DNA from: an uncultured Gammaproteobacteria bacterium
GTDB taxonomy: Bacteria > Patescibacteriota > Patescibacteriia > Patescibacteriales > UBA12465
Assembly (NCBI GenBank): GCA_964588465.1
Contig: CAZPPL010000004.1
Coordinates: forward strand, 13,182-77,181
Direction of reading: 5' to 3'
Length of the DNA stretch: 64,000 nt
Shown here in pieces: positions 7,185 to 55,081 of the stretch. The position numbers and the translations under genes are program-made. The notes below the pieces were generated by a model. It was given only the letters and a program-made list of their open reading frames with translations. It ran no database searches and was not told the origin of the DNA. Position 1 is the stretch's first letter; each line of letters opens with the position of its first letter.

Positions 7185-7193
7185 TGATATAAT
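7185..7193 (+). promoter_or_regulatory. Candidate extended -10 promoter (TGaTATAAT) for ftsK
   Basis: tgatataat lies about 50 nt upstream of the ftsK start, inside a 150-bp AT-rich intergenic region. Confidence 0.3.
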
Positions 7194-7239
7194 TTAGAGA
7201 TAATAATACTTAGTTTAGTTAATAAGAAATTAATTTATT

Positions 7240-9894: not shown

Positions 9895-9913
9895 GTAAGA
9901 CTCTAGTAATTAT

Positions 9914-28488: not shown

Positions 28489-29370
28489 TTATTGCTTGCT
28501 AATATATTTATAGCGCCGAATATTTTTATTGGCTAATTGTTGAATCTCTCGTATATCTTTAGTTTTTAGATGTTTAAATCTGCCTTGTAAATTCAAGTAT
28601 TCATTAACTGGTTTAGCAGCAAAATTAGCATTAATACTGGAGCCACTGAGTTTTCCGTCTTTATATTCTAGTAAAGGATAGAGGCCAGTTAAAACTGCTA
28701 GTTTTCCCATTAGAACCGCTTGATTTGTCTCCACTTTCCAGCCGGGAATACAGGGTGATAGAATTTGTAAGTAACTGGGCCCAGAGACGCTCAAAGCGAC
28801 TTTTATTTTGCGAGTAATATCGTCAGGATATCCAGTAGTACTTTGAGCAGCATATTTCAGCCCGTGTGCTAGAGCAATCGCTAACATATCTTTTTTCACT
28901 TGTTGGGAACCAGCAGATTTTATTCCCGCCGGTGTGGTAGTAGTGGCAGCGTCATAAGGGGTAGAACCTGAGGCTTGAATACCAGTGTTGGAATAAGCTT
29001 CAGTATCATAACAAATATATAAAATATTTTCTTTCCTTTCCCACATTCCACTAATAAGTCCTAAACCAATATCATAAGTTCCGCCATCACCTCCTTGCAC
29101 TACCACTTTAGTATTTTTGTCGCCTTTCTGTTTTAGAGCGGCAGAAATTCCTGAGGCTACCGCTGAAGCATTTTCAAATAAAGAATGGATCCAAGGCAGA
29201 CCCCAAGCACTTTGGGGGTAGGCAGTAGTGGTTACCTCCAGACAACCAGTAGCATTGGAGATAATTGTGTCTGGACTTAAACCACGCATTACGGCTTGCA
29301 CAGCAACTAATTGTCCACAACCAGAACAAGCATTATGGCCTGGGGAGATGAATTTAAGTTTTGTTTTCAT
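28489..29370 (-). CDS. porB: 2-oxoacid (pyruvate):ferredoxin oxidoreductase beta subunit (TPP-binding)
   Basis: CSGCGQ is near the N-terminus and GGDGGTYDIGL is the TPP/Mg motif. It is the last gene of the por operon on the minus strand. Confidence 0.85.
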   Translation of the reverse strand: MKTKLKFISPGHNACSGCGQLVAVQAVMRGLSPDTIISNATGCLEVTTTAYPQSAWGLPWIHSLFENASAVASGISAALKQKGDKNTKVVVQGGDGGTYDIGLGLISGMWERKENILYICYDTEAYSNTGIQASGSTPYDAATTTTPAGIKSAGSQQVKKDMLAIALAHGLKYAAQSTTGYPDDITRKIKVALSVSGPSYLQILSPCIPGWKVETNQAVLMGKLAVLTGLYPLLEYKDGKLSGSSINANFAAKPVNEYLNLQGRFKHLKTKDIREIQQLANKNIRRYKYISKQ

Positions 29371-29423: not shown

Positions 29424-30656
29424 CTAAGGTTTTTTATAACACCATAGGCCACTAGCACAATCCCTTGCTCCTAAATCGTAACTCTTACCAGATTTGGCAC
29501 AGGTGCTGCCAGGTTTATTACCACAAGGCTCTCCAAGTTTACCAAGACCCACTACCACAACATGATTATAGCACCACCTCCATTGACTAGCATCACTACC
29601 TCGAACAGTCATCCTTCCTAGCCATTTTGATCCATCTTTTAAAGTTGCGCATTTGTCACTATTGCTTGAAACACAATAATTAATTTCACCTTTAGAATTC
29701 ATAACTTTAGGTGTTTGTGAACAACTGGAGTGATAAAACTTACTATTAGAGAGTTTAGCACAATTATTAGGAGTAGTGTTCATACACTGATATAGACCCC
29801 CTGTATTAGTATAATCGATTGTACAACAACCCGTCGCTTCACAAGTTCCTGTAGTGTAATCGGGACTATAATAATTATCTTGTGAGTTTTTTATCATGAA
29901 ATTACCGCTCTTAATCTTGCAACTAACACTTCCCATTATTTCTGCTTGTTTATTATTATTGGCATCTTTATATTCACAACAACCTAAGTTACTCTTCGGT
30001 ATCACTTGAGTTTCAAGTATTTTTAACTTTACTAAATTAGGATTGATAGTGGTAAGTATTAACCAAGAACTAAATAGAATAACTAAACCTACAATACTGC
30101 CAGTAATTAACTCTTTAGCCTGACTTATTCTAGAATCATTACCTGCAGACACTAGCCATAACATTCCTCCGCCCATTAGAACTACTGCGGCTAAAATACT
30201 GCCGATTATTAGGCCATAATTATATAGAGCTTTAATATACTCCGCCAACAGACTGCTATACATTTTGCCAGAGCCAGCATCATAATGTCCAACGGCTACA
30301 CTTTTTTTATCAAAAATAGAATTAGGTATTTGTACTTGAGGTTCAAAGTTTAAAGATTTATAGATTTTTGCATTATTATTACTATTAGGAGGAGGAGTGT
30401 ATGTGCTTTGGGACGAATTTATAGCTGGACTCACTGTTTGAGTTGTACAACAACAAGCACCAGGATTTTGTTGTTGTTGGAAAAAAGTTATATTACAGTC
30501 ACTTGGGACTTTTTTTGTTTCAATAGTGGAGCATAGCTTTCCAGTATTTATTATATTCTTAGCCACCCAATGGCAAGATTCCGCTTTAGATATTTTAGGA
30601 AAAAATAAAAATATTATTAGAAATAAACCTAAGATTGTTATGGTTAATTTTTTCAT
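29424..30656 (-). CDS. Cys-rich exported protein with a TrbC/VirB2-like (T4SS pilin-like) two-TM hairpin core, paralog 2 (410 aa)
   Basis: The signal peptide is MKKLTITILGLFLIIFLFFPKISKA. It is followed by an N-terminal Cys-rich region (ESCH...CCC). The core LIIGSILAAVVLMGGGMLWLVSAGNDSRISQAKELITGSIVGLVILFSSWLILTTINPNLV forms TM, a short basic/polar loop, then TM, as in T4SS pilins. A C-terminal domain of about 190 aa carries many Cys. Confidence 0.5.
   Translation of the reverse strand: MKKLTITILGLFLIIFLFFPKISKAESCHWVAKNIINTGKLCSTIETKKVPSDCNITFFQQQQNPGACCCTTQTVSPAINSSQSTYTPPPNSNNNAKIYKSLNFEPQVQIPNSIFDKKSVAVGHYDAGSGKMYSSLLAEYIKALYNYGLIIGSILAAVVLMGGGMLWLVSAGNDSRISQAKELITGSIVGLVILFSSWLILTTINPNLVKLKILETQVIPKSNLGCCEYKDANNNKQAEIMGSVSCKIKSGNFMIKNSQDNYYSPDYTTGTCEATGCCTIDYTNTGGLYQCMNTTPNNCAKLSNSKFYHSSCSQTPKVMNSKGEINYCVSSNSDKCATLKDGSKWLGRMTVRGSDASQWRWCYNHVVVVGLGKLGEPCGNKPGSTCAKSGKSYDLGARDCASGLWCYKKP
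29990..30356. repeat. 367-bp perfect direct repeat, copy A (core of pilin-like paralog 2)
   Basis: I compared it base by base with 30874..31240 (offset 884 bp) and found no mismatch. Identity ends abruptly on both sides. Confidence 0.95.
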
Positions 30657-30685
30657 AGTTTAGATAAAAAATCTGGGTTCATCAC

Positions 30686-31540
30686 TTATCTACTAAAATT
30701 GAATTGAGTAACCATCATTGGTTGATCGGTTGCATTGATCATTTTTACTTCGCATTCATTTGTGGTTAAGTTAGCTACAAGTTCAGCTTGGAATTTATTA
30801 GTCCCACATTCACCCTTGGTATCGTTATAAACTTTATGGGTTATTTTGTTAGTACAGCAACCTTGAGCTAGACTACTCTTCGGTATCACTTGAGTTTCAA
30901 GTATTTTTAACTTTACTAAATTAGGATTGATAGTGGTAAGTATTAACCAAGAACTAAATAGAATAACTAAACCTACAATACTGCCAGTAATTAACTCTTT
31001 AGCCTGACTTATTCTAGAATCATTACCTGCAGACACTAGCCATAACATTCCTCCGCCCATTAGAACTACTGCGGCTAAAATACTGCCGATTATTAGGCCA
31101 TAATTATATAGAGCTTTAATATACTCCGCCAACAGACTGCTATACATTTTGCCAGAGCCAGCATCATAATGTCCAACGGCTACACTTTTTTTATCAAAAA
31201 TAGAATTAGGTATTTGTACTTGAGGTTCAAAGTTTAAAGAATTGTAAATCTTGGTATTGTCAGTAGGTGCGTTTGTTTTAGCAGTATTGGCTGACGGAGT
31301 TACCACCTTATTTTTAGGGGTTTGTTTGTCTGCTGATAAGGCTGGAGAATTAGCAGTACAACAACAAATATCGGCTTTAGACAGAGTAGCGCTACAACTC
31401 GCTAAAGTATTCTGGGTTTCAGTAATTGTACAGGTATTAGGAATAGTCACCAAATGACAAGATTCGGCCTTCACTACTATTGGAACAGAAAAGAAAGTTA
31501 GGAGTGATAAAGCTAAAATTATAACTGGTAATTTTTTCAT
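30686..31540 (-). CDS. Cys-rich exported protein with a TrbC/VirB2-like two-TM hairpin core, paralog 1 (284 aa)
   Basis: The signal peptide is MKKLPVIILALSLLTFFSVPIVVKA, followed by ESCH...CCC in the N-terminal region. The core of about 122 aa is identical to that of paralog 2. The Cys-containing C-terminus is short. The start ATG overlaps the porA TGA (ATGA). Confidence 0.5.
   Translation of the reverse strand: MKKLPVIILALSLLTFFSVPIVVKAESCHLVTIPNTCTITETQNTLASCSATLSKADICCCTANSPALSADKQTPKNKVVTPSANTAKTNAPTDNTKIYNSLNFEPQVQIPNSIFDKKSVAVGHYDAGSGKMYSSLLAEYIKALYNYGLIIGSILAAVVLMGGGMLWLVSAGNDSRISQAKELITGSIVGLVILFSSWLILTTINPNLVKLKILETQVIPKSSLAQGCCTNKITHKVYNDTKGECGTNKFQAELVANLTTNECEVKMINATDQPMMVTQFNFSR
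30874..31240. repeat. 367-bp perfect direct repeat, copy B (core of pilin-like paralog 1)
   Basis: Identical to 29990..30356. Confidence 0.95.
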
Positions 31541-32748
31541 AGTTTAGTGATAAATTTTAAATAACTATTTTTGAGTGGAGTATCCTTAATTATATCTATA
31601 ATCATTTTTTGATTTATATCGCGTCCACCTAGCCCAACAATATAATTTTTGAGATGTATATTATTTTTCGTTTTTCCCAGAGCCATAATAGTACTGGCTA
31701 CATCTGAGTATAATGGACCAGATTGTCCTAAACTAATTGCCTTTTCTAGCACCGCGATATGTTTAGCAGATTTTATTATATTTATAACTTCAGTCTTAGG
31801 AAAAGGACGATAGACTTTTATTTTTAGCAGGCCGATGTTCTTAAAGTTTCTAATAGTCTCTCGTATAGTTCCCAACATAGAGCCCATAGCAATTAAAATA
31901 ATCTTAGGGTTTTTCGGACCGTAGTATTCAATTAGACCATTATCAACAAGAGACCCTCTATTTTTGTTAGAATTATTTTTAAAACCTAAAATTTGGTTTA
32001 ATAATTTATATTCTTGCTTAATAGTTTTTAAGCTAGACACTAAATTATTATGTAAACTTTCTCTAGTTTCCATGTAACTGTTGGGTCCAAAAAAGGCTCC
32101 TAGAGTTACTGGATTATTAGGGTTCAGATAAGTTCCAGCACTGGGTTTATAATCTGGCAGATATTTTTTAATTAATTTTGATTCAGGAATAATTACTGGT
32201 TCATAGGAATGAGTTAAAATAAAACCATCTACATTAATCATAACCGGAAGCTTTAACTTTTCTGCCAGTTTATAGGCTAAGATATGTTGATTTACTGCTT
32301 CTTGGTGGTCAGCGGCGAATAGCTGGATCCAACCAGCATCCCGAATAACCATCACATCACTATGATCATTCCAGATATTAATTGGGGCAGAAATTGCTCT
32401 ATTAGCACAAGTTATGACTACGGGTAAACGCATTCCTGCAATATTAAAAATTACTTCGGTCATGAGCAATAGTCCTTGTGAGCTGGTTGCACTATAAACC
32501 CTGACTCCAGTAGCACTGGCTCCTAAGATTATAGAAGCAGCGGCAAATTCACTTTCAGCCCGTATATATTCAAAAGAACTTTTTCCATCGGCTTTCATTT
32601 TAGCTAAATCTTCCACAATATGTGTTTGGGGTGTAATGGGAAAAGCTGAGACTACTGCTGGAGCAATATTTTTAATAGTTAAAGCTATGGCGTTGGAACC
32701 TTCTAAAATTTGTTTTTTGTTTTTCATGGTATGGTAGATATTAGCCAC
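31537..32748 (-). CDS. porA: 2-oxoacid (pyruvate):ferredoxin oxidoreductase alpha subunit
   Basis: The 403-aa protein has the typical PorA N-terminus (GSNAIALT...AFPITPQT). Its position follows porD. Confidence 0.85.
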   Translation of the reverse strand: MANIYHTMKNKKQILEGSNAIALTIKNIAPAVVSAFPITPQTHIVEDLAKMKADGKSSFEYIRAESEFAAASIILGASATGVRVYSATSSQGLLLMTEVIFNIAGMRLPVVITCANRAISAPINIWNDHSDVMVIRDAGWIQLFAADHQEAVNQHILAYKLAEKLKLPVMINVDGFILTHSYEPVIIPESKLIKKYLPDYKPSAGTYLNPNNPVTLGAFFGPNSYMETRESLHNNLVSSLKTIKQEYKLLNQILGFKNNSNKNRGSLVDNGLIEYYGPKNPKIILIAMGSMLGTIRETIRNFKNIGLLKIKVYRPFPKTEVINIIKSAKHIAVLEKAISLGQSGPLYSDVASTIMALGKTKNNIHLKNYIVGLGGRDINQKMIIDIIKDTPLKNSYLKFITKL

Positions 32749-32751: not shown

Positions 32752-33036
32752 TTAGTAGTCTTTTTTCATAATAATTGCTTTTACTGGGCATTCAAGCGCA
32801 CATAGACCGCAGCCCTTGCAATAGTCATAATCTGTTTTTGGTTTTAGTTTGCCGTCAAATTTTTTATTTCGTCCCATTAGAATACAAGCTTCTGGACAAA
32901 CCTTAGCACACAAACTACAGCCAATACAGCGTTTTAAATCAGTGACTGGACGTTCAGTTCGCCAAGGCCCAGTTTTATTGTTTAGACTACTATTGGGTCG
33001 GGTAATTAAATTTGCCTGTTTGATAACTTTTTTCAT
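32752..33036 (-). CDS. porD: 2-oxoacid:ferredoxin oxidoreductase delta subunit (2x[4Fe-4S] ferredoxin)
   Basis: There are two CxxCxxCxxxCP motifs, CIGCSLCAKVCP and CKGCGLCALECP. Confidence 0.85.
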   Translation of the reverse strand: MKKVIKQANLITRPNSSLNNKTGPWRTERPVTDLKRCIGCSLCAKVCPEACILMGRNKKFDGKLKPKTDYDYCKGCGLCALECPVKAIIMKKDY

Positions 33037-33040: not shown

Positions 33041-33580
33041 TTAAGATCTATTAATCAAAGAAACTGCTGCAATATTTTTTTTAATTATTTCTTGGCCCTT
33101 ACTAGCAAATTTAGTCACTATGGCTTTTTTTAAAGATTCTAAAGAAATTATTTTAGTATATTTTATTAAAGCTCCTAGAATTACCGTATTTACCAAATTT
33201 TTGCCTAGAATTTTTAAAGCTATTTCTGTAGCTGGACTAAAGTATAAATTCTTTGATTTTAAATTCAGTTGAGGCCAACGATTTTCTGGAGCATTAATAA
33301 TAATTTTGGTATTGCAATCAATACCTCCGAATACTTCAATAGTATCAATTAAAGTACTGTCTTGAATAATTAAAATAGTAGGTTTATAGATTTGTTCCCG
33401 AGTAATAATTTTATGATTATCAATACGAGCAAAAGATTGAATTGGAGCCCCACTTCTTTCTACCCCGAAACTAGGGAAAGCTTGAGCTTCATGGCCATCA
33501 TAGAAAGCGGAGAGTGCTATCAATTCAGCAGCGGTAACCACTCCTTGTCCTCCTCTACCGTGAATACGAATTTGTTCCAT
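33041..33580 (-). CDS. porG: 2-oxoacid:ferredoxin oxidoreductase gamma subunit
   Basis: IRIHGRGGQGVVTAAELIA is the characteristic gamma-subunit N-terminus. Confidence 0.85.
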   Translation of the reverse strand: MEQIRIHGRGGQGVVTAAELIALSAFYDGHEAQAFPSFGVERSGAPIQSFARIDNHKIITREQIYKPTILIIQDSTLIDTIEVFGGIDCNTKIIINAPENRWPQLNLKSKNLYFSPATEIALKILGKNLVNTVILGALIKYTKIISLESLKKAIVTKFASKGQEIIKKNIAAVSLINRS

Positions 33581-33581: not shown

Positions 33582-34340
33582 TTATTTAATTAATCCTTGG
33601 ATTAAAGTATTAAATTTATTAAACGGTACATAACCAGAGAAAGCATAATTATTAACAAACCAAGTGGGAGTGCCAGAAATTTTTAAAGCATTAGCGTCAT
33701 TATAGTCTTTTTTAATTTGTTTAAGATACCTTTCACTGCTCATACAAGAATTAAATTGAGTGATGTTTAGTCTTAAATTTTTAGCCAAAGTCACTAATTT
33801 AGCGGGGCGAGAGCTATTATCTGTTATGAGTTCTGCTTGGTGGGCAAATAAAGCATTATGCATTGGCCAAAATTTTCCTTGTTCTCCAGCACAGCGCGCG
33901 GTCATGGCTAAAGCTATAGAACCTTTATTAAGTAGATAATCTCGCCAAATTATTTTTATTTTATTTTTATAGGTTTTGGCTAGTTGATTTACCACTGGAG
34001 AAGCTTCTTTACAGTGCTGACAAGTAAAATCACCAAATTCTACAATAGTAACTTGTGGGGTGTTTGTACCTAAAAAATAATTGCTACCATCACCATTAAT
34101 TTCACTTAAATAAGTATGAATTTGAGTACTAGTTAAAGCAGGAGAAGTTCCAGTCCTAATTTCTCTTACCTTATTAATCACATATAGACTGGAAGCGATT
34201 AGAAGTACTAAGAGTAGGCTGATAATCACTAAAATAATTATTCCCCACCATTTTTTATACCAAGGACGTAGTTTATACTCGTGTCGTGCTTTCATTTCAG
34301 CATATTTTAATCGTTCTTCTAAATTCATATCTAAACTCAT
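33582..34340 (-). CDS. Membrane-anchored DsbA-like thioredoxin-fold thiol:disulfide oxidoreductase
   Basis: There is one N-terminal TM (WWGIIILVIISLLLVLLIASSLYVI). The thioredoxin-fold active site is FGDFTCQHCKEA (CxxC), and the cis-Pro region is ISGTPTWFVN. The gene ends 1 nt before the porG start. Confidence 0.7.
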   Translation of the reverse strand: MSLDMNLEERLKYAEMKARHEYKLRPWYKKWWGIIILVIISLLLVLLIASSLYVINKVREIRTGTSPALTSTQIHTYLSEINGDGSNYFLGTNTPQVTIVEFGDFTCQHCKEASPVVNQLAKTYKNKIKIIWRDYLLNKGSIALAMTARCAGEQGKFWPMHNALFAHQAELITDNSSRPAKLVTLAKNLRLNITQFNSCMSSERYLKQIKKDYNDANALKISGTPTWFVNNYAFSGYVPFNKFNTLIQGLIK

Positions 34341-38553: not shown

Positions 38554-39252
38554 ATGCGGCCAGAAAATCCCTTGGCATCAAATAAGCCGACAATAACTCT
38601 TAATGGTTTACCTGACCTTAGAAAAATTGTAATCATTATTTTGACGATTTTAGCAATTTCTATTATTGTCTTCTGGATTTGGCAAATGCAAACTCAAATT
38701 AATAGCCCTTTTGCCGACAACTCTACCAGTAAATTATCTTCTAGTGTAATCGCTAGCACTAGCCCTATTAATTTATTAAAAGAAACTGATACGGATGGCG
38801 ACGGTTTATCTGACTATGCAGAAATTTATATTTATCACACCTCCCCTTACTTAGTAGATTCTGATAGTGATGGAATTTCTGATTTTAAAGAAGTGCAACA
38901 AGGTACTAATCCTAACTGTCCCCAAGGTAAAAATTGTAATATTTCTAATCCAGTGGTTAATTCTAATCCAGCACTCAACTCTAAAGCTTCTCAATTAAAA
39001 CCCACTAGTAGTATTAGTTCTTTAAATTCTAGTCCTAGTTCACTGGCTAACTCTAGTTCTACTGAGGCTAGCCAAGTATTACTACAAAAAGTTTTAAATG
39101 GACAAGCTAATGCTCAGATGCTAAGAGAAATTTTAATTTCGCAAGGTATTAGCACTAAAGCACAATTAGATAAAATTAGTGATAGCGAGTTGATGAATAG
39201 TTATCAGACTACTTTACATAATCAAAGTTCTAGCACCAGTTTGACTAAGTAG
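38554..39252 (+). CDS. Membrane-anchored protein with thrombospondin-type-3-like Ca-binding repeats and an S/N-rich linker
   Basis: The TM helix is IVIIILTILAISIIVFWIW. DTDGDGLSDYAE and DSDSDGISDFKE (38788..38913) are D-x-D-x-D-G-x-x-D repeats. The gene ends 30 nt upstream of the giant gene. Confidence 0.55.
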   Translation: MRPENPLASNKPTITLNGLPDLRKIVIIILTILAISIIVFWIWQMQTQINSPFADNSTSKLSSSVIASTSPINLLKETDTDGDGLSDYAEIYIYHTSPYLVDSDSDGISDFKEVQQGTNPNCPQGKNCNISNPVVNSNPALNSKASQLKPTSSISSLNSSPSSLANSSSTEASQVLLQKVLNGQANAQMLREILISQGISTKAQLDKISDSELMNSYQTTLHNQSSSTSLTK

Positions 39253-39282: not shown

Positions 39283-42200
39283 ATGAAGAATCATTTAGTT
39301 CCAAACAAAAAAGGCATGAACAGAATAAGTTTTAAAATAAAAAATATCCTGTTAATTTTTTTATTAGTATTCTCAGTAATGTTGGTTGTGCCAGTTAAGC
39401 CGGTTTGGGCATTTTCTCCTGGAGTGATTATTGTGAATACTGCTAAAAATGTTTTAGATAATGCCTCCAGTTTAGCTAAAAAATTATGGAAAAATGCTGG
39501 AGCCATTGCTTATCATAAAGCATTGAGTTTAGCCTTAGATAAGATTGCTTATGATGCCGCTAATTATGTTGGTTCGGCGGCCGCTGGACAAAAACCCACT
39601 TTTCATCTAAAGGCTGTGGGTCAGTACTTATTACAAGTGGGGGATCAGGCCAGTGGGCAGTTTATAGAAAGTTTTGTGAATAACATGAATAAACCAGAGA
39701 CTAATGATACTTGCCGAGCTTCGCTTCAAAGTTGCCAGCAGACTTGTATTAGTGCACATGGTTCACCTATTAATTCTTCGGGTCTTGGATTTTTAAACAC
39801 TAGCCCAGATGTTACTCCAGGTTTAAGTTCAAATTCTTCCGCAGGCTCATTAGATAGTTGTTTTAAATCTTGCACTGCTAGCAACACTGCCTGTGAAAGT
39901 CAAAGTCTTCAAGCTAATGCTAATGCCTCAACTGCCACTCCTTCATTTAATGTTTGTGGAGCTTCTTCTTTACAGGCTAAAGTTAAAATATCTTTGGGCT
40001 TGGTTAATGAACAGCGACCAGTTGCTCCAAGTTGTAGTGCTACTAAAATGGTTAATAATTGGCAAACTGATCTAAATAGAAAATTAGCGGACCTGCGTAA
40101 ACCTAATTATGTTTCTACTCTAATGGGATTGTTCAGACCAAATTCTAATGATTTAGGGATTTATCTGAGTGCTAGGACTGATATGTCTAGTAAGGATTTA
40201 TTAGCCAAGGAAAACGCTAAGACTAGTTTTATTACTAATCAAGGTTGGTTAAGAATACGAAATATTGGGGGTGAGGCCGTAGCTCCTCCTGGGACCTCTA
40301 AAAGAATATTACAAGAAGCTCAAGCGGTTCGAGATCAGAATTTTGGGAAGATTAGTACTAATGTTTTAGTAGATGCAGCCAATATTGCTTTAAATCAATT
40401 AGCCATGTCTTTATATAATAATTTATTACGGAAAGTAGGGTCTGGGCATAACAACAATAATTTTGCTATTAGTAATATAAGAGGTTCAGGCTCTTATACC
40501 CGAGATCCTAATAGCGGTTTAGGGGCTAATGCTCTAAAGCAAGTAACTTCTAAATTATTAAAACCTACTTTTGGTACTCAGATTGATTACAATATTCTAT
40601 CTTCTTTAGCGGTTTGTTTGAATCCTCAGAATCCCGCTCCAGATAATTGTGTTATTGATAATCAATTTATGCAAGCTGTTACCGCTAAAGATACAGTAGC
40701 GGAAGCCATTAAAGATGGTTATTTGCATGGTAATTGGCAAATAACTAATAATACTTCAGGCAGCGCTTATAATAGTAGCTATTCTTTACGAAATTTAATG
40801 ATTCTAGCTAAATATCGTATTCTGCCTATCGGTTGGGTGGAAGCAGCTAAACTAGCCACTGATGCAACTAATCCTCATAATGCTACTCTGAATGATTTAG
40901 TTTCTTGTTTTAATTCTCATGATATTTATGATAAATTCAGTGCGGGGTTTGATACTGCGAATACTATTTGGTGCCAAGGATTAGTTGATCCTAATTGGGT
41001 GTTGCGTTCGCCACTTAATTATTGTAAGAAAAAAGGGTTTGGAGCGCAGATCTTAAATAAAACTGTATTAGCGGGTACTCCAGCGGTTAATGGTATTCCT
41101 GCTACCCCTAGTCGTTTAGTTATTACTAGAGCAGATAATTATTGTGCCGATAATCAGAGTTGTATTAAAACTAGGGCTGATGGTAGTTGCGAGGCTTATG
41201 GTTATTGTAATGCTGAAAAAAGGACTTGGAATTTTAGCACCGATTCTTGTCAGCCCATTAATAATACTTGTCAATCCTTTACTAATCCCAGTGGTGAAAC
41301 AGTTTCTTATCTGCAAAATACTTTAAATTATGGAAGTTGTAATTCTGGCAATGCGGGTTGTTCTCAATATTCTTTATCTGGGAATTATGCCACCTCCACA
41401 GGAACTGTTAATTGGAATACTAGTCGCAGTTTATATTTAAATAATAATCTAAGTACTTGTAGTGTCCAAGAAAGCGGCTGTACTGGATTATTACGAGTAC
41501 AAGCTAATCAGGGTGATAATCTGGTAATGAATTCAAATTTTGCTAATGACCAAATTGGTGTTTCTACTAGTGGTAATCAACTTGATGATTGGTTTCTGTT
41601 TGGCACTAGCCAGTCCGTTATTGTAGATGCTAGTCAAGATCCAGGTAATCTCAGTGGTAAAGCTTTAAAATTAAGTATTTCTAAAGGATCACGGGGTGGA
41701 GTATATTCTTCTTTTTTGCATTCTTTATTGCCAAGCAATTTTCAAATTATACCTGGACGAGCTTATACTTTAAGTGCTGATGTTTATATTACTGGTGGAG
41801 TTAATGCTGGTACTTCGCTCAATTTAACTCTAGGAGTAGTTGGTAGTCCTTATACCCAGACCATGACTAACACCAATAAGTGGGAGCATATAAGTGTTAC
41901 TCGTCCTGCTAATAGTTCTTATAATGATCCTAACTTTAGTATTAGTGCTCAAAATAAGACTAATAATGGAATTTTCTATGTTAAAAATATTAAGTTTGAG
42001 GTAGGGAGTCAAGACACTGGTTATAGTTCTTATGGTTATACCCCTGCTGGTTCAGCTAAAATTTATGAAAAGTTATTACCACCGTATTTAGCTAAAACTT
42101 GTTATACTGATATCTCTGGAGCTAATAAGAATTATACTTTAAAGCCTGATGCCCCAGCATTTTGTTCAGACTATGCCCGAAAATGTAATTTAGCAGAAGT

Positions 42201-45200
42201 GGGTTGTCAGGCCTATACTAATGTACAGGATAAATTTACAGTGGCTGCTAAAACTACCACTGGGGATTATTGTCCGGCGCAATGTCTAGGTTATGATATT
42301 TATATATCTCAGGGTAGTTACTTCCATTCTCCAACTCGAGAAAATATAATTCCTAAGACTGCTCAGGCTTGTAGTGCAGCTGCGGTGGGTTGTACAGAAT
42401 TTACTAATTTAGATAGTTTAGCTCAAGGAGGAGAGCAAAAGGAATATTATACTTCACTAAAACAGTGTATTAAACCTAGTCCGACTCAGTGTTCTACTTT
42501 TTATGCTTGGCAAGGGCAGACCAATGGTTATCAATTACAAGCTTATTCTCTGAAGAATAATGGAGCTGGCTTACCAGCAGTTACTTCTGATGATAGTGCT
42601 CTGTGTAATGCCACAATCTATAATTTACCAGTTAGTGATCCTAACTTTAATTCTAATTGTAAACAATTTTATAATGCTTCGGGTCAGGTCGCCTATCATT
42701 TAGTTTCTAGGACTATTACTTGTTCTAATGATTGTCATGCCTATAGAATGACAGATAAGAATATTGATTCTAGTATTACACAGGCTAGCGCTTGTGTGGG
42801 AACAAATGAACATTGGAACAGTGTGACTAATAGCTGTAATGTTTGTTTAAATGGTGGAGTATGGGATCAAACTTCGGGAGCTTGTATCTATCAGGCTATT
42901 CCAGGACAAGGGCAAACTTGTAGTGCTAGTCAAAATGGTTGCAGTGAATATAATGGTAATACTGGAAGTAATGTCCGTTTGATCTATTCTGATAATTTTG
43001 AGAACGGTTTAGATTCTTGGTCTTCTAGTTGTAGCGATGGAACAGGAATTAGTATTAGCTCAGTTTCCAATAATAAAAATGGTCATTCCTTATTATATAA
43101 TGCTCAAGCCTGTTCTAATGTTCGGGCGCAATTAAATGTTAGTGGTTTAATTACCACTGCTAAGGCCTATACTTTAAAATTTGTAGCTCGAGCTGCCAAT
43201 AATACTAGCTTAAAAATTTATTTTATAAATTTGAATACGGGTATTGCCTCTAGTGCTTGGAGCCCAGTAATAATTAAAGGAGGAAATACTTGGAATGTTT
43301 ATCAAACTAATCTAGCCAATCTTGATAAAACCGTGGGGAATAAAGAAGAGCTGGTAATTAGTGCTAATGGTAATTTCTATTTAGGAAACTTTATTTTATC
43401 AGAAATTGCTGATCGTTATTATCTAATTAAAGGTTCTAGTCAAATTCCTAATGTTTGCTATTATGATACTGCTGGCAATTATCAAGGGGTGGATTATAAT
43501 TTAGGTTGTGCTCAATATACTAGCAGTAGTGGGGTGGTAAGTAATTTACATCAGTTCAATAGTCTATGTTCTGCCTCTTCAGTTGGGTGTGAGCAGGTGA
43601 TTAACACTAATAATTATTCATCTCCTGGCCCCGGATTTTGGGAAAATGGAGTAGCGACTAGCACTTGTAGCACTAGTGATCCAAATTGTGTTATAGTCCC
43701 TGGTGATCAATCTTTGTATGCCATTTATGATACCACTAAACAATGTAGTGCTCCTAGTCAAGGTTGTAGTCTGTTGGGTCAAGGTCAAGGGGGAGCTAAT
43801 CTTACTGGTTGGTCAGATGTCTTTAAATTAAATAATCCTGATAATTATAGTAAAACTTTATGTAGCGCAGTTAATGTCGGCTGTGAAGCCTATCAAGGTT
43901 CCAATAATACTATTAGTTATTTTAAAAATCCTGGCAATAAAGTATGTATTTATCGGGCTAGCCAAAATCCTACTATTTCACAAAAATCTTGGTATAAGGT
44001 TCCGGTTAAACGTTGTGATCTAAATAATGACGGAGTCATTGATAATCCGGTTGGAGGAAGTAAAGAGATTGGTAGCAAAATTTGTTTGAATAATAGTGAT
44101 TGTGGTAGTAGTAAATGTATTGTGGATAATAATGATTATCTTTGCAATTATTCTGTATTTAAGACTATTGGTTTAGGTGGTCAAGGGTCTGAAGTTAAAG
44201 TTCCTAGTTCTGATGTTGGTCTGTGCTCTGCTAGAGCTTCAGGTTGTACTGAATATATTGATCCAGTGACTCGCTTTAATCCTAATCTAGTTAATAATGC
44301 TAATTTTGTTATTACCAATGGAATAGCTGAAGGTTGGGGGCGAAGTAGTATTGGAACTTGGTCACCAGCACCTACTCCTACCCAACAAGTAATATCTTTA
44401 GAGCCCTACAAACTATATAGTTTAGATGTTAGCTCTGGTGATGGTAGTGGAGTAAGTCTAAGCTTTAGTACTCCAATTAGACCATTGCTAAATAATAATA
44501 ATTTTGGCAGTGGAATATCTCAACTCATAGCTAGCAGTACAGCAAATACTCCAATAATTTTTGATTCCGCTGTTAATAGAAGTGCTTTATTGTCTGGAGG
44601 GAATCCTAATCGTACCATTAGCATTAAGGAGTTAGCGGTTAATTATCAATTGCAACAAAACATAGATAAAACTAGTTGTAATGGACAAGCTCAATTTAAT
44701 AATGGCTGTATTTTATTTAATGAACGTAGCGTTACTGATGCTTCTGGTCCAGCCAGTTTGAATTTTAATGCTTATGCTGGTAATTCCTATACCACCAACC
44801 CTTATACTCCTATTACTTGTAGCCCTGGAGGTTCTTGTAACGCTAACCAAGTTATCAAGGTTAGCCCTAGTAGAGTTTGTTCTCAATGGTTAAGCTGTAC
44901 CTCCTATATTCAAGATCCAGTTACTCACCAGAAAACTTGTTATTCTTTTGGAGAGTGCAATAGCTTAAATAGTAAAAATGGTTGTGCTAATTTCGTAAAT
45001 ACAGCAACTTCTACAGTTTCGGCAGCAGTAAACAGTAATGCTACGGGTTATTCTATTCTGAACGATTATAATTTAAGTCAAATGAAAATTGTAGGTGAAG
45101 GAGTAGCTACTGCCCATTATGATTTTGAAAATAGCAGCATTAAAGCTTGTAGCCAAGATAATTTAACCCAGCCCTGTTTAATAGATAGTCCTGACACTGC

Positions 45201-47331
45201 TAGTTTATCTATTGCTACCAGTTATCCTGCGCAAGGTAAAGCCTATTTAGCAATACCAGCTGGTAAAGAATATACTTTTAAAAATAAGAGTGCTGTAAGT
45301 AATAGCAAGCCAACTGACTATTATATAAGCTATTTGGTAAATACTTCTAAATCCGCTGGGCTACGGGCCAAAATTATTATTACTCCTTACTATGGACCTT
45401 CTGATAGTGCTACTATGGGCACTCCAATAGTTATTTACTCTCCAGCTAATTTAGCCTGGACCAGGGAAGTAAACAAGTTCACTTTAACTAATGCTAATAA
45501 AATTACCATTACTCTAAGTTCAGATGCTAGTACTTCTGCTGGAGGACCAGTATATTTTGACAATATTAATATTTCTCCAGTATTACAAGTGGCTCCTAAT
45601 AAATATGTAGCTCCAGAATGTCGGCTGTATCCAACTAGTGGTAGTTTGAGTTGTATTAGTAAAGACTCTAATACTATTAAACCTGGACTGGAAGGTTATT
45701 GTCTAGAACATGACCCTGCTAATACTAATGTTTGTCTGCTTTGGTATCCTTTAGATAATATTCCTAGCTTAAGTTTATCTTCCTCTGGTTATGCGGGAAA
45801 GTTTCCTTTGAATTATTGTGCTGAGGCTAATGGTAATTTTGTTCTGTTGGAGAAACGACTGGTTTATGTTGCATCTAGTACTAGTATTCATAATCATACT
45901 GTGAAACTTTGTGGTAAGAAGTATAAAGACGGGGCAGCTATCACCTTATCTGGAACAACTCATACAACTTGTGATTCTTATTCTTCGTGCGATCAGTGTC
46001 CAGCTGATTATAATACTGATATTTCTTGGAAATTTACAGCTGCGGGGGCTAGTCCGTTGCGCATTATTTGTCTTCCTAAAAAAAATAAGTTATTTAATCA
46101 TTTTCAAACATCTTTTACACTAAATAATGCCTCTACTTTTGGTCAGTGTAACGGAATTACCACTACTAATGGTTATGGTATATATAATGGACTTCAAGGA
46201 GCAGAAGCTACTAATATGAATCCACCAATAGCAGTTTATAATTATAATAATCCTCCTGCTAGTGCGGCTCAATTGAAATTTCCTTATGCCACCTCTACTA
46301 GTAGTAATGATGTTTTCAATATTGCTTGTAATACTTTTGTACAAGCTGTAGATAATCAGGGTCTTAATAAAGCCTGGGTGCTTAGAGTAAATACGGTGGC
46401 CAATACCACTCCGACATTTTTTAGCCCTTATAATGGCATTCCTAACTATAGTCAGAATCGTAAAGACGTTCCTTTTGGAGCCGCTTCTTCACCTAAGAAT
46501 AATTTGTTTAATAGTGGGAATATTGCTTTAAATAATTCTGATACTAAGATAGGCAGTAATATTGCTGGGCGTCCTTATGGTTGCAATAATGGTCAGTCTG
46601 GTGATGGTTGTGATTTAATTGGTTCATGTACTAAGGCCCCTGACACCTATTGTTTAACTACTAAGAATGATAATTTTTCTAATACTGGCGTTGATGGTAA
46701 GGCAATTGATTATAGTTTAGCCTCCTCTACTTGTGGTCGTTCAGGTGGTTCTTGCGTTCCACTTTGGTCTAGTACTGTGGGATACGGGCAGTTGATAAAT
46801 ACGGCCAGCGCGGCTAGTTCTCCTTATGAAAAAATTCTTAAAAATATATTTTTAAGTGGTAATATTTATAAGTATAACAGTAATAATGGTGGAAATTACT
46901 CGCCAGCTGGTTTTTATGATTTTTCTAATGTTTCAAATAGCGATAATGTTATACCCCAGTGTAATTCCAACATCAGATCAGATCCTAATACTTTCTGTGC
47001 TGTTTATCCTAGTCTATTTAATGTTAAATTATATTATAATAACAGCACAAAAGCTTTAAATGGAAATAATAATATCAGTTATACCGACTCTTTGCAGGTA
47101 GTTAGAGGCTGGTATCGCTTAGAGTTCAATAGTAAAATAGATCCTCAACAACGACCTCTCACTAGTATTGTAATTAATTGGGGCGATGGTTATATTCAGA
47201 CTATTTATGGTCAGAATGCTCGCCCAGTAGCTTCTTCTCCTCAAGTTGTATATCATCATTATTCTCAGAATGCTACAATAAAGTTAAAAGTTGAAATTAT
47301 TGATAATTGGGGTTTCTTTGCTCATAATTAA
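39283..47331 (+). CDS. Giant (2,682 aa) secreted cysteine-rich modular surface protein
   Basis: It is a single uninterrupted ORF. The signal peptide ends ...VVPVKPVWA. By my hand count it contains about 94 Cys. A C-x5-G-C motif recurs, and there are four beta-sandwich (CBM4_9-like) modules and a C-terminal PKD-like domain. A terminator follows the gene. Confidence 0.8.
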   Translation: MKNHLVPNKKGMNRISFKIKNILLIFLLVFSVMLVVPVKPVWAFSPGVIIVNTAKNVLDNASSLAKKLWKNAGAIAYHKALSLALDKIAYDAANYVGSAAAGQKPTFHLKAVGQYLLQVGDQASGQFIESFVNNMNKPETNDTCRASLQSCQQTCISAHGSPINSSGLGFLNTSPDVTPGLSSNSSAGSLDSCFKSCTASNTACESQSLQANANASTATPSFNVCGASSLQAKVKISLGLVNEQRPVAPSCSATKMVNNWQTDLNRKLADLRKPNYVSTLMGLFRPNSNDLGIYLSARTDMSSKDLLAKENAKTSFITNQGWLRIRNIGGEAVAPPGTSKRILQEAQAVRDQNFGKISTNVLVDAANIALNQLAMSLYNNLLRKVGSGHNNNNFAISNIRGSGSYTRDPNSGLGANALKQVTSKLLKPTFGTQIDYNILSSLAVCLNPQNPAPDNCVIDNQFMQAVTAKDTVAEAIKDGYLHGNWQITNNTSGSAYNSSYSLRNLMILAKYRILPIGWVEAAKLATDATNPHNATLNDLVSCFNSHDIYDKFSAGFDTANTIWCQGLVDPNWVLRSPLNYCKKKGFGAQILNKTVLAGTPAVNGIPATPSRLVITRADNYCADNQSCIKTRADGSCEAYGYCNAEKRTWNFSTDSCQPINNTCQSFTNPSGETVSYLQNTLNYGSCNSGNAGCSQYSLSGNYATSTGTVNWNTSRSLYLNNNLSTCSVQESGCTGLLRVQANQGDNLVMNSNFANDQIGVSTSGNQLDDWFLFGTSQSVIVDASQDPGNLSGKALKLSISKGSRGGVYSSFLHSLLPSNFQIIPGRAYTLSADVYITGGVNAGTSLNLTLGVVGSPYTQTMTNTNKWEHISVTRPANSSYNDPNFSISAQNKTNNGIFYVKNIKFEVGSQDTGYSSYGYTPAGSAKIYEKLLPPYLAKTCYTDISGANKNYTLKPDAPAFCSDYARKCNLAEVGCQAYTNVQDKFTVAAKTTTGDYCPAQCLGYDIYISQGSYFHSPTRENIIPKTAQACSAAAVGCTEFTNLDSLAQGGEQKEYYTSLKQCIKPSPTQCSTFYAWQGQTNGYQLQAYSLKNNGAGLPAVTSDDSALCNATIYNLPVSDPNFNSNCKQFYNASGQVAYHLVSRTITCSNDCHAYRMTDKNIDSSITQASACVGTNEHWNSVTNSCNVCLNGGVWDQTSGACIYQAIPGQGQTCSASQNGCSEYNGNTGSNVRLIYSDNFENGLDSWSSSCSDGTGISISSVSNNKNGHSLLYNAQACSNVRAQLNVSGLITTAKAYTLKFVARAANNTSLKIYFINLNTGIASSAWSPVIIKGGNTWNVYQTNLANLDKTVGNKEELVISANGNFYLGNFILSEIADRYYLIKGSSQIPNVCYYDTAGNYQGVDYNLGCAQYTSSSGVVSNLHQFNSLCSASSVGCEQVINTNNYSSPGPGFWENGVATSTCSTSDPNCVIVPGDQSLYAIYDTTKQCSAPSQGCSLLGQGQGGANLTGWSDVFKLNNPDNYSKTLCSAVNVGCEAYQGSNNTISYFKNPGNKVCIYRASQNPTISQKSWYKVPVKRCDLNNDGVIDNPVGGSKEIGSKICLNNSDCGSSKCIVDNNDYLCNYSVFKTIGLGGQGSEVKVPSSDVGLCSARASGCTEYIDPVTRFNPNLVNNANFVITNGIAEGWGRSSIGTWSPAPTPTQQVISLEPYKLYSLDVSSGDGSGVSLSFSTPIRPLLNNNNFGSGISQLIASSTANTPIIFDSAVNRSALLSGGNPNRTISIKELAVNYQLQQNIDKTSCNGQAQFNNGCILFNERSVTDASGPASLNFNAYAGNSYTTNPYTPITCSPGGSCNANQVIKVSPSRVCSQWLSCTSYIQDPVTHQKTCYSFGECNSLNSKNGCANFVNTATSTVSAAVNSNATGYSILNDYNLSQMKIVGEGVATAHYDFENSSIKACSQDNLTQPCLIDSPDTASLSIATSYPAQGKAYLAIPAGKEYTFKNKSAVSNSKPTDYYISYLVNTSKSAGLRAKIIITPYYGPSDSATMGTPIVIYSPANLAWTREVNKFTLTNANKITITLSSDASTSAGGPVYFDNINISPVLQVAPNKYVAPECRLYPTSGSLSCISKDSNTIKPGLEGYCLEHDPANTNVCLLWYPLDNIPSLSLSSSGYAGKFPLNYCAEANGNFVLLEKRLVYVASSTSIHNHTVKLCGKKYKDGAAITLSGTTHTTCDSYSSCDQCPADYNTDISWKFTAAGASPLRIICLPKKNKLFNHFQTSFTLNNASTFGQCNGITTTNGYGIYNGLQGAEATNMNPPIAVYNYNNPPASAAQLKFPYATSTSSNDVFNIACNTFVQAVDNQGLNKAWVLRVNTVANTTPTFFSPYNGIPNYSQNRKDVPFGAASSPKNNLFNSGNIALNNSDTKIGSNIAGRPYGCNNGQSGDGCDLIGSCTKAPDTYCLTTKNDNFSNTGVDGKAIDYSLASSTCGRSGGSCVPLWSSTVGYGQLINTASAASSPYEKILKNIFLSGNIYKYNSNNGGNYSPAGFYDFSNVSNSDNVIPQCNSNIRSDPNTFCAVYPSLFNVKLYYNNSTKALNGNNNISYTDSLQVVRGWYRLEFNSKIDPQQRPLTSIVINWGDGYIQTIYGQNARPVASSPQVVYHHYSQNATIKLKVEIIDNWGFFAHN

Positions 47332-48016: not shown

Positions 48017-51004
48017 ATGAAACTCAAGAGGTCTAAAAAAATATTTTTTCTAGTTTTTCCTCTTTTTTTAGTATTGGGAATTTTTTTAATTGGGAACTAT
48101 GTTCATGCTGGGTGGGCTACTACCATAGTTAGTAATTTTCTGAGTATTTTTATTTTTGCTTTTGGTTTAATTCTGGGTCTAGTTATTCGCGGTTTAATTT
48201 ATATTGCTTCTTATCAAAATTTTATTAATGTTCAGGTTGTAATTTTAGGCTGGGAGACGGTAAGAGATATTGCCAATATGTTTTTTGTAGTGGTCTTAAT
48301 GATCATTGCTTTTGGGACTATTCTACATTTAGAGAACTATGATTACAAAAAATGGTTGCCTAAGTTGATTATCATGGCGGTTTTAATTAATTTTTCTAAA
48401 ACTATTTGTGGTTTATTAATTGATATTGCTCAAGTAGCCATGCTCACTTTTGTGAATGCCTTTAAAGCTATGGGTGGGGCTAACATGACTGATATGTTAG
48501 GCATTAGCAAGATTGTCACTATGGCTAAAAGTAATGGTAGCAGTAGTTTTTCTACCATTGTTGGGGCTTATATATTAGGAATTTTTTATTTATTAACTGC
48601 AGTAGTGGTAATTACCACTATGATGGTCGTTCTGGCCATGCGTTTAGTTATGATCTGGATCTATGTAGTTCTATCTCCTTTAGCCTATCTCTTAGCCGCT
48701 TTCCCTGGTGGACAAAAATATGCTTCTCAATGGTGGAGTGAATTTACCAAAAATTTAATTATTGGTCCAGTTCTGGCTTTCTTCATTTGGCTATCGCTAG
48801 CTTCTCTGTCTGGTATTAACAATATGGCTTTAACTCCTCAGCAAAAAATTAAAATTAATAATCAAGGAACCAGCTATAATAATTCTATAGTTGCCTCTAG
48901 ACCAAATACTGGTCAGCCTAATCCTATTGGTACTCAAGCTAGTACTCCGTCGGCTTTAATTGCTTTTGTAGTGGGAATTGGTATGCTGATTGGCGGTCTT
49001 AAGATATCTCAAGAAATAGGTGGTGCTGCTGGGGGTATAGCAGGAAAAGGGATGGCTAAAATAAACAGAGGAACGGCTTTTGCTGGTAATTTTGCTGGTA
49101 ATTTTGCTAAGAGACAAGTCCAGGAAGTTGGTCGCGCAGTTCGAAATAATGGTTTAGGCACCGCCTCTATGCTGTCCAAAGGAGCAGGAGGTATAACAAC
49201 TTGGATGGCAAAAGGAAAAGAAACTAAAGTTAGTAGTATTTTGAAGACCCTGGGTAATACTGGATTAGCTTGGCGTTCGGACATGATGAAAAAAAATAAA
49301 AAAAATAAACAAGTTAAACGCCAGCAATTCTTAGAGAAAATGGGTATGGGAGAGAAAGCTATGGATGTGACTAGTGAATTTTTAAAAACAGACACTGGTA
49401 AAGAAGTATCAAGTGCTGTTAATGTTGGAGCGATGGGAGCAGGAATTGGCACTGGTTTTGGCCCAATAGGGGCTGCGGTAGGTGGTGCTGTTGGTTTTCT
49501 GGGTGGCGGTTTAATTAGTCATTTTGCGGGGAAGGGAAAGGACTCAAAGCATAAATGGTGGGGCAAATTAACTGGTAATATCCAATCTTTCACTTCTGAA
49601 ACCACTCAGAAAGCTGCTGCTCATGGCAGTGTAGAGATAGCTAATGCCCGACAAAATGTTAAAAGTGCCAGTAAGGATGCTGGCGGGTTTATGCGAGATT
49701 CTTCGGGTTATACTTTCTATTCCAACACTGGAGGTCAAGCTAAAAAAACTATAGAACAACTAGCCTCTAAGGATAATCCTGATGCTACCACTGCTAGAGA
49801 TAACTTAAGAGATCTCATTAACAACGATGGCCCTGAGATGCATAATGCTCATAGTATGGATTTTGTAGCTGGTCTAGCCAAAGGTATTGCTGCTGCCAAA
49901 AAAGGTGGTATGGATGTTAGCAGACTTCAAGAAATTATTAATGCTATAGATAGTCATAATGGTGGTCAGGGCGACATTCATGGATTAAAAGGGGCTACTG
50001 TAGGAAGCTTAGAAGATAATGTGATTGCTTATCGCCACTCCTCTAAAGATAGTGAACATGGCAGTGGTCAGTTGGCGGTTGGCACTCTAGCTAATAATAC
50101 TCAGAATGAAGCTGGTAAAAATATTGTGGGAGTTGATTTTTCCAAATTAAAAGAGCAAGGAGTTGAAATTGATAGTGAGGGACTAGGAGCAAATGTTAGT
50201 GGTGCTAATATGGTAAATATCTCTGGAGCTATTATCAAAGAAATTAATACTGAGCAGTCTAACCTACAAGAAGCTAGAAATAGTGGAGAAATTAGTGAGA
50301 CTGAATTTAGTAAACGTAATGCTAATTTAGATAAGGCTAAGGAAAAGCTGTCTAATCCAGAAGAATTGAAGAATTTGAGTTTGGTCAACACTGCTTCTAA
50401 AGATTATGGACGTCAAGAAAGAATGACTACGGTCTATCATGAAGAAATACATAAAGGCGGAGTACAGGATGAAGATCTTACCGAAAATATTGCCCAGAGT
50501 TTAATGGGTAATAAGTTGTATGGTCGTAATGCTAGTTCGGGTGGACGTCATGCTACAGAAATTGCTACTTTTGCCAAGGGATTGAAGGATAAAAATATGA
50601 GCAACGGCGACATTATGAAAGAAGTTGATAAAGAAATAAAATCACGTCTTAAAATGGAAGGAGAGAGTAGAGCTGCTCGGGTTATAAATAAAGAGACTGG
50701 GCATAAGGAGAGTGAATCAGAAGCTACTGGGGGAGAGAACAATGCTTCAAAACCAGATAGTCCCGAAATAGATACCGAAGGTCTGCAAAGAAGCATTGAT
50801 CAATTGTCTGAAAAATTTAATAAATTTAAATTAGAATCTCCAGATTTATTAGCGTCGCTCTCCCCTCAGAAGTTTAAAGGCGGTATGGACACTTATGCCT
50901 TAAGAACCTTATTTAAAAAGATTGTTAGTAGCAATAATCGTTTGGCCAAAAGGCTGTCAACTCCGCTGGAGGCTAAAGTATTAATTAATACTGAAAAAAC
51001 CTAG
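48017..51004 (+). CDS. VirB6/TrbL-like polytopic membrane protein with a ~650-aa hydrophilic C-terminal extension
   Basis: The N-terminal ~330 aa carry at least six hydrophobic helices, organised like TrbL/VirB6. A Gly-rich stretch follows (GGAAGGIAGKGMAK, GAMGAGIGTGFGPIGAAVGGAVGFLGGG), then a long charged tail. Confidence 0.5.
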   Translation: MKLKRSKKIFFLVFPLFLVLGIFLIGNYVHAGWATTIVSNFLSIFIFAFGLILGLVIRGLIYIASYQNFINVQVVILGWETVRDIANMFFVVVLMIIAFGTILHLENYDYKKWLPKLIIMAVLINFSKTICGLLIDIAQVAMLTFVNAFKAMGGANMTDMLGISKIVTMAKSNGSSSFSTIVGAYILGIFYLLTAVVVITTMMVVLAMRLVMIWIYVVLSPLAYLLAAFPGGQKYASQWWSEFTKNLIIGPVLAFFIWLSLASLSGINNMALTPQQKIKINNQGTSYNNSIVASRPNTGQPNPIGTQASTPSALIAFVVGIGMLIGGLKISQEIGGAAGGIAGKGMAKINRGTAFAGNFAGNFAKRQVQEVGRAVRNNGLGTASMLSKGAGGITTWMAKGKETKVSSILKTLGNTGLAWRSDMMKKNKKNKQVKRQQFLEKMGMGEKAMDVTSEFLKTDTGKEVSSAVNVGAMGAGIGTGFGPIGAAVGGAVGFLGGGLISHFAGKGKDSKHKWWGKLTGNIQSFTSETTQKAAAHGSVEIANARQNVKSASKDAGGFMRDSSGYTFYSNTGGQAKKTIEQLASKDNPDATTARDNLRDLINNDGPEMHNAHSMDFVAGLAKGIAAAKKGGMDVSRLQEIINAIDSHNGGQGDIHGLKGATVGSLEDNVIAYRHSSKDSEHGSGQLAVGTLANNTQNEAGKNIVGVDFSKLKEQGVEIDSEGLGANVSGANMVNISGAIIKEINTEQSNLQEARNSGEISETEFSKRNANLDKAKEKLSNPEELKNLSLVNTASKDYGRQERMTTVYHEEIHKGGVQDEDLTENIAQSLMGNKLYGRNASSGGRHATEIATFAKGLKDKNMSNGDIMKEVDKEIKSRLKMEGESRAARVINKETGHKESESEATGGENNASKPDSPEIDTEGLQRSIDQLSEKFNKFKLESPDLLASLSPQKFKGGMDTYALRTLFKKIVSSNNRLAKRLSTPLEAKVLINTEKT

Positions 51005-55075: not shown

Positions 55076-55081
55076 AATAGT

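Follow-up and report, generated by a model that had tools for sequence, protein, structure and literature searches.

Two adjacent genes on the minus strand of a 64,000-nucleotide (nt) stretch of contig CAZPPL010000004.1, which comes from an uncultured member of the Patescibacteria and was analysed over its full length (hereafter the window), share an identical central segment of 367 bp. The genes, here called A and B, encode pilin-like membrane-hairpin proteins, and we consider it probable (at about 0.82) that the identity reflects recent gene conversion between two old tandem paralogs, an event that could equally be called a very recent segmental copy, as part of recurrent concerted evolution. 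The parts of the pair are listed below in window coordinates, with protein positions given in amino acids (aa).

30686-31540, minus strand: gene A, 284 aa, PF18895 pilin-like, with a short 62-aa C-terminal domain containing four cysteines (open reading frame (ORF); Pfam 30.7 bits)
29424-30656, minus strand: gene B, 410 aa, PF18895 pilin-like, with a long 188-aa, beta-rich C-terminal domain containing 16 cysteines (ORF; Pfam 28.7 bits)
30874-31240, minus strand: repeat copy 1, in gene A (codons 101-222 plus 1 nt), an exact 367-nt match to copy 2
29990-30356, minus strand: repeat copy 2, in gene B (codons 101-222 plus 1 nt), an exact 367-nt match to copy 1
31241-31540, minus strand: N-terminal 100 codons of gene A, signal peptide and six-cysteine region (ESCH...CCC), a diverged homolog of the B counterpart (cysteine counts)
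30357-30656, minus strand: N-terminal 100 codons of gene B, signal peptide and six-cysteine region (alignment, cysteine counts)
30689-30873, minus strand: C-terminal domain of gene A, aa 223-284 (synonymous divergence 2.1 and nonsynonymous divergence 0.83 against B)
29427-29989, minus strand: C-terminal domain of gene B, aa 223-410 (alignment, AlphaFold2 (AF2) model)
30657-30670, minus strand: leader upstream of the B start (TATC-TAAACT), aligned in register with 31541-31554 upstream of the A start

Base-by-base comparison, with which a repeat search agrees, confirmed the identity that an earlier note on this DNA had described: 29990-30356 equals 30874-31240 as a maximal exact run of 367 nt with an 884-bp offset. 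Outside the two tract copies, the whole 64-kb window contains no further exact repeat of at least 20 nt, which places an identity of this length far beyond chance. The tract runs, in A as in B, from the first base of codon 101 to the first base of codon 223. It encodes an identical block of 122 aa (aa 101-222) that contains the PF18895 match (aa 138-204) and both long helices, in agreement with the hairpin core of about 122 aa proposed in that note. The GC content of the tract (0.344) is that of the window (0.345, or 34.5%) and its GC content at third codon positions, 0.24, is similar to that of neighbouring genes, on which grounds we rejected GC-biased conversion.

The ages of tract and flanks were compared using codon-based Nei-Gojobori estimates of nonsynonymous (dN) and synonymous (dS) divergence. 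Between A and B, both dS and dN are 0 over the 122 codons of the core (83 synonymous sites; 95% upper bound of 0.035 for pS, the proportion of synonymous differences), whereas dS in the flanks is saturated, at 1.1 for the signal peptide, 1.7 for the N-terminal cysteine region and 2.1 for the C-terminal region, with dN of 0.5-0.8 and a dN/dS of about 0.3-0.4, which does not exceed 1. The same core compared between genomes gave dS values from 1.4 to infinity and dN of about 0.25-0.28. Since the silent sites of the core are saturated between genomes, constraint at the nucleotide level cannot explain the identity; and since selection on the hairpin at the protein level leaves silent sites free, the identity of A and B at these sites points to recent copying. 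The same saturation of silent sites, together with the lack of any Rfam match, led us to reject an RNA element or any other constraint on the nucleotides themselves.

The flanks had initially been called unalignable on both sides, which is an overstatement, as the codons at the tract edges are clearly homologous and the flanks are diverged homologs with 46-68% nt identity. Genes A and B align without a shift in register from 14 nt before the ATG to the end of the tract, with N-terminal parts of 100 codons each, and are 68% identical at the nt level in the signal peptide and 55% in the N-terminal cysteine region. At the 5' edge, the codons for K-I-Y differ only by synonymous third positions (AAG ATT TAC versus AAA ATC TAT), and at the 3' edge the codons for S/N-L-(AQ)-G-C-C align, homologous but changed. 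That the C-terminal regions are unlike in length and sequence was borne out (62 versus 188 aa, with about 46% nt identity where alignable). An 18-mer repeat at 30644/31528 lies near the A and B starts, and the leader at 30657-30670, judged by its in-register alignment, marks the 5' edge of the old duplication unit.

To place the pair in its family, we used about 35 related loci obtained from a scan of species-representative genomes and from homolog look-ups (loci are labelled L001 and so on, proteins P0014 and so on), all of them from Patescibacteria (Falkowbacteria, Magasanikbacteria and other groups). Neighbour-joining trees with 200 bootstraps were built separately for the core and for the C-terminal domain, in which genes A and B appear as winA and winB. 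In the core tree the copies group by genome, with support of 100% for A and B, 97% for L001_1 and L001_2 and 100% for L020_1 and L020_2. In the C-terminal tree, by contrast, B groups with L005/P0004 (74%), A groups with P0014 of L041 (86%) and then with L001_1 (78%), and L001_2 groups with P0006 (70%), apart from L001_1. Only the L020 pair stays together there (81%), and its union in this tree as well points to a lineage-specific duplication. The window and L001 share the order porA, type 1 ('GCCT-NK'), type 2 ('GCCEY...NNK.AE'), porB, and L041, L005 and L042 each have a lone gene of the A or the B type, which together show that the A/B duplication predates these lineages. A duplication older than the lineages combined with cores that nevertheless follow the genome is the signature of concerted evolution. 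The possibility that gene A is a truncated pseudogene was rejected because a similar gene with a short C-terminus, P0014 (267 aa), is the only pilin between porA and porB in L041.

Similar mosaics are present in other pairs of the family. In the L001 pair, 96 nt of leader and signal peptide are 97% identical (dS 0.10), and the core contains 274 nt at 91% identity, with dS 0.34 over the 122 codons and a longest exact run of 101 nt; the remainder is saturated. The L008 pair, which lies downstream of porB (7065-8528 and 8479-10020 of JBAZBP010000002.1), carries a 387-nt exact run that covers the signal peptide and the N-terminal cysteine domain. A second peak of 96% identity falls in the hairpin of the L008 pair, and both the stretch between the peaks and the C-terminal sequence are diverged. 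On this alignment L008 is an independent case of mosaic conversion, and together with L001 and with L031, whose core is 83% identical, it argues that conversion events of various ages and positions are spread across the family and are not restricted to the hairpin.

The contrast in dS, the incongruent trees and the mosaics in related loci thus give strong support to the proposal of gene conversion or a very recent segmental copy. That the process is ongoing, as the earlier note also suggested, is supported only in the evolutionary sense, by events of different ages in different lineages, and has no support at the population level. The pilin pair of L001-L004, one species represented by four assemblies from European Nucleotide Archive and Joint Genome Institute samples, shows 0 differences over 1.9-2.4 kb. 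The further suggestion, that only the core is kept identical and the exposed ends are thereby free to vary, fits the window, where tract and core coincide, but not L008, where the tract is the exposed N-terminal domain, nor L001, where it also includes the signal peptide. As these tracts cover other regions, the position of a tract seems to reflect where homology persists rather than a design that protects the ends, and it looks opportunistic.

Mechanistically, the 367-bp stretch of one copy would have served as the template that overwrote the other by non-reciprocal homologous recombination, erasing all differences between A and B in codons 101-222. We infer recombination of the RecA type between the adjacent direct repeats, which would take place between sister chromosomes or inside a single one and end in a non-crossover product. 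Purifying selection on the hairpin would keep the copies similar enough for recombination to start and extend, and recombination would halt where mismatches accumulate and the sequences are too diverged. Such a process may be self-reinforcing, with the conserved core repeatedly homogenised and the diverged ends escaping. Recombination genes within the window are ruvC, recG, radA and recJ.

Several points weigh against recent gene conversion as stated here. The event is known from sequence comparison alone, and transfer from A to B is indistinguishable from transfer from B to A. Bubble-popping in a De Bruijn graph, or polishing, could erase a few true differences, so that the '100%' identity is perhaps 'about 98-100%'. 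The relatives are distant (at most 49% identity to the whole of B and at most about 67% nt identity in the core), and for this reason the C-terminal tree is built on saturated sequences with moderate bootstraps of 70-86%. Finally, recA was not seen within the 64-kb window.

Overall, A and B are 63-71% identical in amino acids. Both consist of a signal peptide (aa 1-25), a 75-aa region with six cysteines (ESCH...C...C...CCC), the conserved motif SLNFEPQVQIP and two long hydrophobic helices (AF2 136-169 and 174-204; predicted local distance difference test (pLDDT) 83-89) separated by a short polar loop (SAGNDSRISQAKE); Kyte-Doolittle analysis places hydrophobic segments at 1-26, ~141-172 and ~182-209. 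The core (aa 101-222) has zero cysteines, and the C-terminal parts have four in A and 16 in B. The AF2 model of gene B has a pLDDT of 76.9, with a beta-rich C-terminal domain mostly at 80-95, for which a fold search with the AF2 model found no significant PDB match. A cleaved signal peptide followed by two membrane spans suggests that both variable ends should be extracytoplasmic and the short loop cytoplasmic. This predicted topology fits the even cysteine counts and the DsbA-like gene that heads the operon, and the N- and C-terminal domains are predicted to be rich in disulfides. The matches to PF18895 (T4SS_pilin; aa 138-204) score 30.7 bits for A and 28.7 for B against a gathering cutoff of 26.6, a narrow margin, and no NCBIfam model matches either protein. 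The profile match and a signal peptide with two hydrophobic helices around a short polar loop are as expected of a PF18895/VirB2-like protein. In contrast, lengths of 284 and 410 aa with additional cysteine-rich N- and C-terminal regions depart from a small hairpin-only protein, and the pair lies between porA and porB rather than next to virB3, virB4 or other genes of a type IV secretion system (T4SS). In view of this mixed outcome, 'pilin-like membrane-hairpin surface protein' is the safest name for A and B.

In many relatives, another gene of the pilin-like kind lies downstream of porB, for example at 7981-9123 of L001. In this post-porB pilin, a C-terminal Peptidase_M15_4 (cell-wall peptidase) module is attached to the same N-terminal cysteine module and hairpin, a fusion which suggests that the hairpin is an anchor for varied extracellular modules. 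The window is without a post-porB pilin gene, and RNase H follows porB directly.

It is tempting to extend gene conversion into a scheme of module exchange, although we consider the following version unlikely. In these Patescibacteria of epibiotic type, the VirB2-like hairpin would be a common membrane or filament scaffold that displays swappable disulfide-rich modules (the N-terminal cysteine module, the two C-terminal types and the M15 peptidase), with the identical core as the substrate for recurrent exchange and B as a fixed product. In an alignment of 40 family members, no protein but B has both the N-terminal cysteine module and a type-2 C-terminus, and the presence of the N-terminal module follows the genome and not the C-terminal type. 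Weighing against a hybrid origin of B, its N-terminus is no closer to that of A than to that of L008_1, and the N-terminal cysteine module is widespread in the family; the case for B as an old hybrid of the A N-terminus and a type-2 C-terminus is therefore suggestive but unproven. If true, the scheme would amount to a low-tech module-swapping of host-interaction proteins, encoded and co-expressed inside the por operon of energy metabolism.

Very unlikely, in our judgement, is programmed variation, in which the core would be a dedicated recombination handle and frequent deletion, duplication or exchange between A and B would generate hybrid surface proteins for phase or antigenic variation of an epibiont. 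As the repeats are direct and in the same codon phase, a crossover would yield either an 884-bp deletion leaving an in-frame N(A)-core-C(B) gene or a three-gene array. The geometry thus bears out the part of the earlier note that envisaged such RecA-mediated hybrids, but no evidence for them was found in searched collections that contain nothing closer to B than 49% protein identity, and L001-L004 have one fixed arrangement, so that formation of a hybrid by deletion is mechanically possible but unsupported. A and B gave no match in exact-protein look-ups, and a metagenome scan with the core peptide returned only distant relatives of at most 49% identity. In favour of a programmed system, the unique combination of modules in B fits past exchange, the N-terminal module tracks the genome, and there are related genomes with A only or B only. 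Against a programmed system, however, A and B are both complete, each with its own start codon, conserved leader and signal peptide and both within one operon, and the homogenised part in L008 is the exposed N-terminal domain, the opposite of a design that diversifies the ends. Silent or truncated donor cassettes were absent from the window, which holds no further pilin copies. A search of the pair for a dedicated cis element returned no significant inverted repeats and no Rfam match, although guanine-quadruplex (G4) motifs were not specifically searched. The only recombinase seen in the window, a serine recombinase at 62400-63926, is 31 kb away.

We give slightly less credence still to an assembly artefact, in which the tandem pair or its perfect identity would have been made by the assembler, either by concatenating strain alleles or, after bubble-popping or polishing, by passing twice through one repeat node. 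The sequence comes from one metagenome-assembled contig of 79.5 kb, each of the two proteins occurs only once in a collection of 5.8 billion proteins, and an exact repeat of 367 bp exceeds the usual k-mers, which means that the assembler needed pairing or coverage to resolve it. On the other hand, a tandem pair with the same order of types is present in a related species in four independent assemblies, and the flanks of A and B are orthologous to different genes elsewhere. As the C-terminus of A leads into the N-terminus of B, the graph would offer a single Eulerian path, and assemblers can hide a few single-nucleotide differences but cannot create about 30% of extra identity. An artefact is therefore unlikely for the tandem arrangement and possible for the last 1-2% of identity.

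That the whole gene was duplicated recently and that both exposed ends then changed very fast under diversifying selection, conversion playing no part, is hardly credible: the flank dN of 0.5-0.8 does exceed the between-genome core dN of about 0.27 and VirB2 paralogs of Anaplasma have hypervariable surface domains (PMC3556328), but selection on protein does not drive the synonymous change that separates the flanks (dS 1.1-2.1) from the core (0), flank dN/dS is about 0.3-0.4 and not above 1, and the two C-termini have different orthologs in other species.

The pair is inserted in an operon for a 2-oxoacid:ferredoxin oxidoreductase, with the order dsbA-porG-porD-porA-[A-B]-porB and all genes on the minus strand.

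33582-34340, minus strand: DsbA-like thioredoxin-fold protein (ORF, NCBIfam DsbA-like match, synteny)
33041-33580, minus strand: porG (ORF, synteny)
32752-33036, minus strand: porD (ORF, synteny)
31537-32748, minus strand: porA (ORF, NCBIfam PorA match, synteny)
28489-29370, minus strand: porB, downstream of gene B (NCBIfam PorB 349 bits, synteny)

The ATG of gene A overlaps the stop codon of porA (ATGA), and A and B are presumably co-transcribed with the por genes; scans for promoters and terminators gave counts equal to those in shuffled sequence. A synteny map shows that about 20 species-level genomes share the conserved layout dsbA-porG-porD-porA-pilin-porB-(second pilin)-RNaseH<-recJ<, with the pilin and por genes tightly packed and often overlapping. 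The window, L001, L006-L010, L012-L016, L018-L020, L022-L025, L028, L030, L031 and L041 all have a pilin between porA and porB. It is usually single, and a tandem pair at this position is found in the window, in L001-L004 and in L020. In L005, L042, L011, L017 and L021 the por genes are lost and dsbA-pilin-RNaseH is kept. A literature search found no report of a linkage between por and pilin genes, an association that keeps a secreted, cysteine-rich membrane protein inside an operon of central metabolism.

Concerted evolution of bacterial paralogs by gene conversion is well known from tufA/tufB in Salmonella and from babA/babB and other Hop paralogs in Helicobacter pylori. As in those systems, a few hundred bp are copied non-reciprocally between paralogs of one genome, the identical tract is set within homologous sequence that is older and has diverged, and trees follow the genome inside the tract and the gene outside it. 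The present case differs in that the genes are adjacent in tandem in a reduced Patescibacteria genome, that only the central membrane hairpin is homogenised while both extracytoplasmic ends have diverged, and that the event is read from sequence only. In Neisseria, silent truncated pilS cassettes donate the variable region to the single expression locus pilE at high frequency, with the help of a dedicated G4 cis element. Common to both is a non-reciprocal transfer, RecA-dependent there and presumably so here, between pilin copies that share conserved segments. However, A and B are both complete genes of the expressed type, what is copied is the conserved hairpin core and not the variable exposed part, and the proteins are unrelated (a type IV pilin in Neisseria, VirB2-like here).

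Closer in protein type are the virB2 clusters of Anaplasma phagocytophilum and A. marginale, in which signal peptide and two-helix hairpin are conserved and diversity is found near the N- and C-termini (PMC3556328). They resemble A and B in having multiple tandem copies with a conserved hairpin and variable ends, but the Anaplasma proteins are small and lie beside virB4, and identical converted cores are not reported there (PMC3556328); the variable ends of A and B, moreover, are whole cysteine-rich domains of 75-190 aa. In the candidate phyla radiation (CPR), 441 tandem VirB2-like arrays have been described, with a mean within-array amino-acid identity of 25% and a maximum of 54% (bioRxiv 10.1101/2025.01.22.634366). 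Like these arrays, A and B are tandem PF18895-type genes in a genome that has a VirB3/VirB4 module beside radA and recG. Unlike them, A and B reach 63-71% overall identity with an identical block of 122 aa, are encoded inside the por operon 23 kb from virB4, and are much larger than a typical VirB2.

No report that combines Patescibacteria, pilin and gene conversion turned up in a literature search. The present result adds modestly to earlier work, with a clear, quantified case of concerted evolution in a pilin-like pair of Patescibacteria that is more similar than any surveyed array and is located away from T4SS genes, inside the por operon. No new mechanism is involved, as gene conversion between bacterial paralogs is classical; the biology is ordinary, and the host is new. 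Patescibacteria, with their tiny genomes, presumably rely on surface contact with hosts. The surface-protein families most expanded in them include the VirB2-like genes, which one cultivated species reportedly cannot do without (cited in bioRxiv 10.1101/2025.01.22.634366). Homologous recombination that homogenises parts of such paralogs would thus provide a concrete case of concerted evolution where recombination has been little studied. It also carries the warning that paralog trees based on the hairpin domain will mislead, and the repeat identified here is one at which assemblies can break or collapse.

Housekeeping genes (rpoB/C, leuS, lepA, recJ, murJ, ftsK and others) make up the rest of the window, and the T4SS-type genes nearest to the pilin pair, at 53954-57004, are about 23 kb away.

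53954-54373, plus strand: PrgI/VirB3-like protein (Pfam PrgI 34.3 bits)
54395-55075 and 55082-57004, plus strand: VirB4-like ATPase, apparently split into two ORFs (faint TraC match; TraG P-loop 100.9 bits)

These genes are part of a CPR-type T4SS module at 53954-61630 that comprises the PrgI/VirB3-like and VirB4-like genes, a 202-aa ORF, RadA (57716-59065) and RecG (59594-61630). T4SS loci linked to recG and radA have been described for Magasanikiibacteriota with the same arrangement as in the window (bioRxiv 10.1101/2025.01.22.634366). Beside recG, at the window edge, the large serine recombinase at 62400-63926 (Resolvase, Recombinase and Zn_ribbon_recom domains) may mark an integrated element unlinked to the pilin pair. 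Just upstream of the T4SS module are two very large ORFs, at 39283-47331 (2682 aa) and 48017-51004 (995 aa), neither of which has a Pfam match at E<=1e-4. The ORF of 2682 aa is directly preceded, at 38554-39252, by a gene for a protein of 232 aa that contains calcium-binding repeats of the bacterial TSP3 (thrombospondin type 3) kind, and a short 18-mer tandem repeat is present at ~49077/49089.

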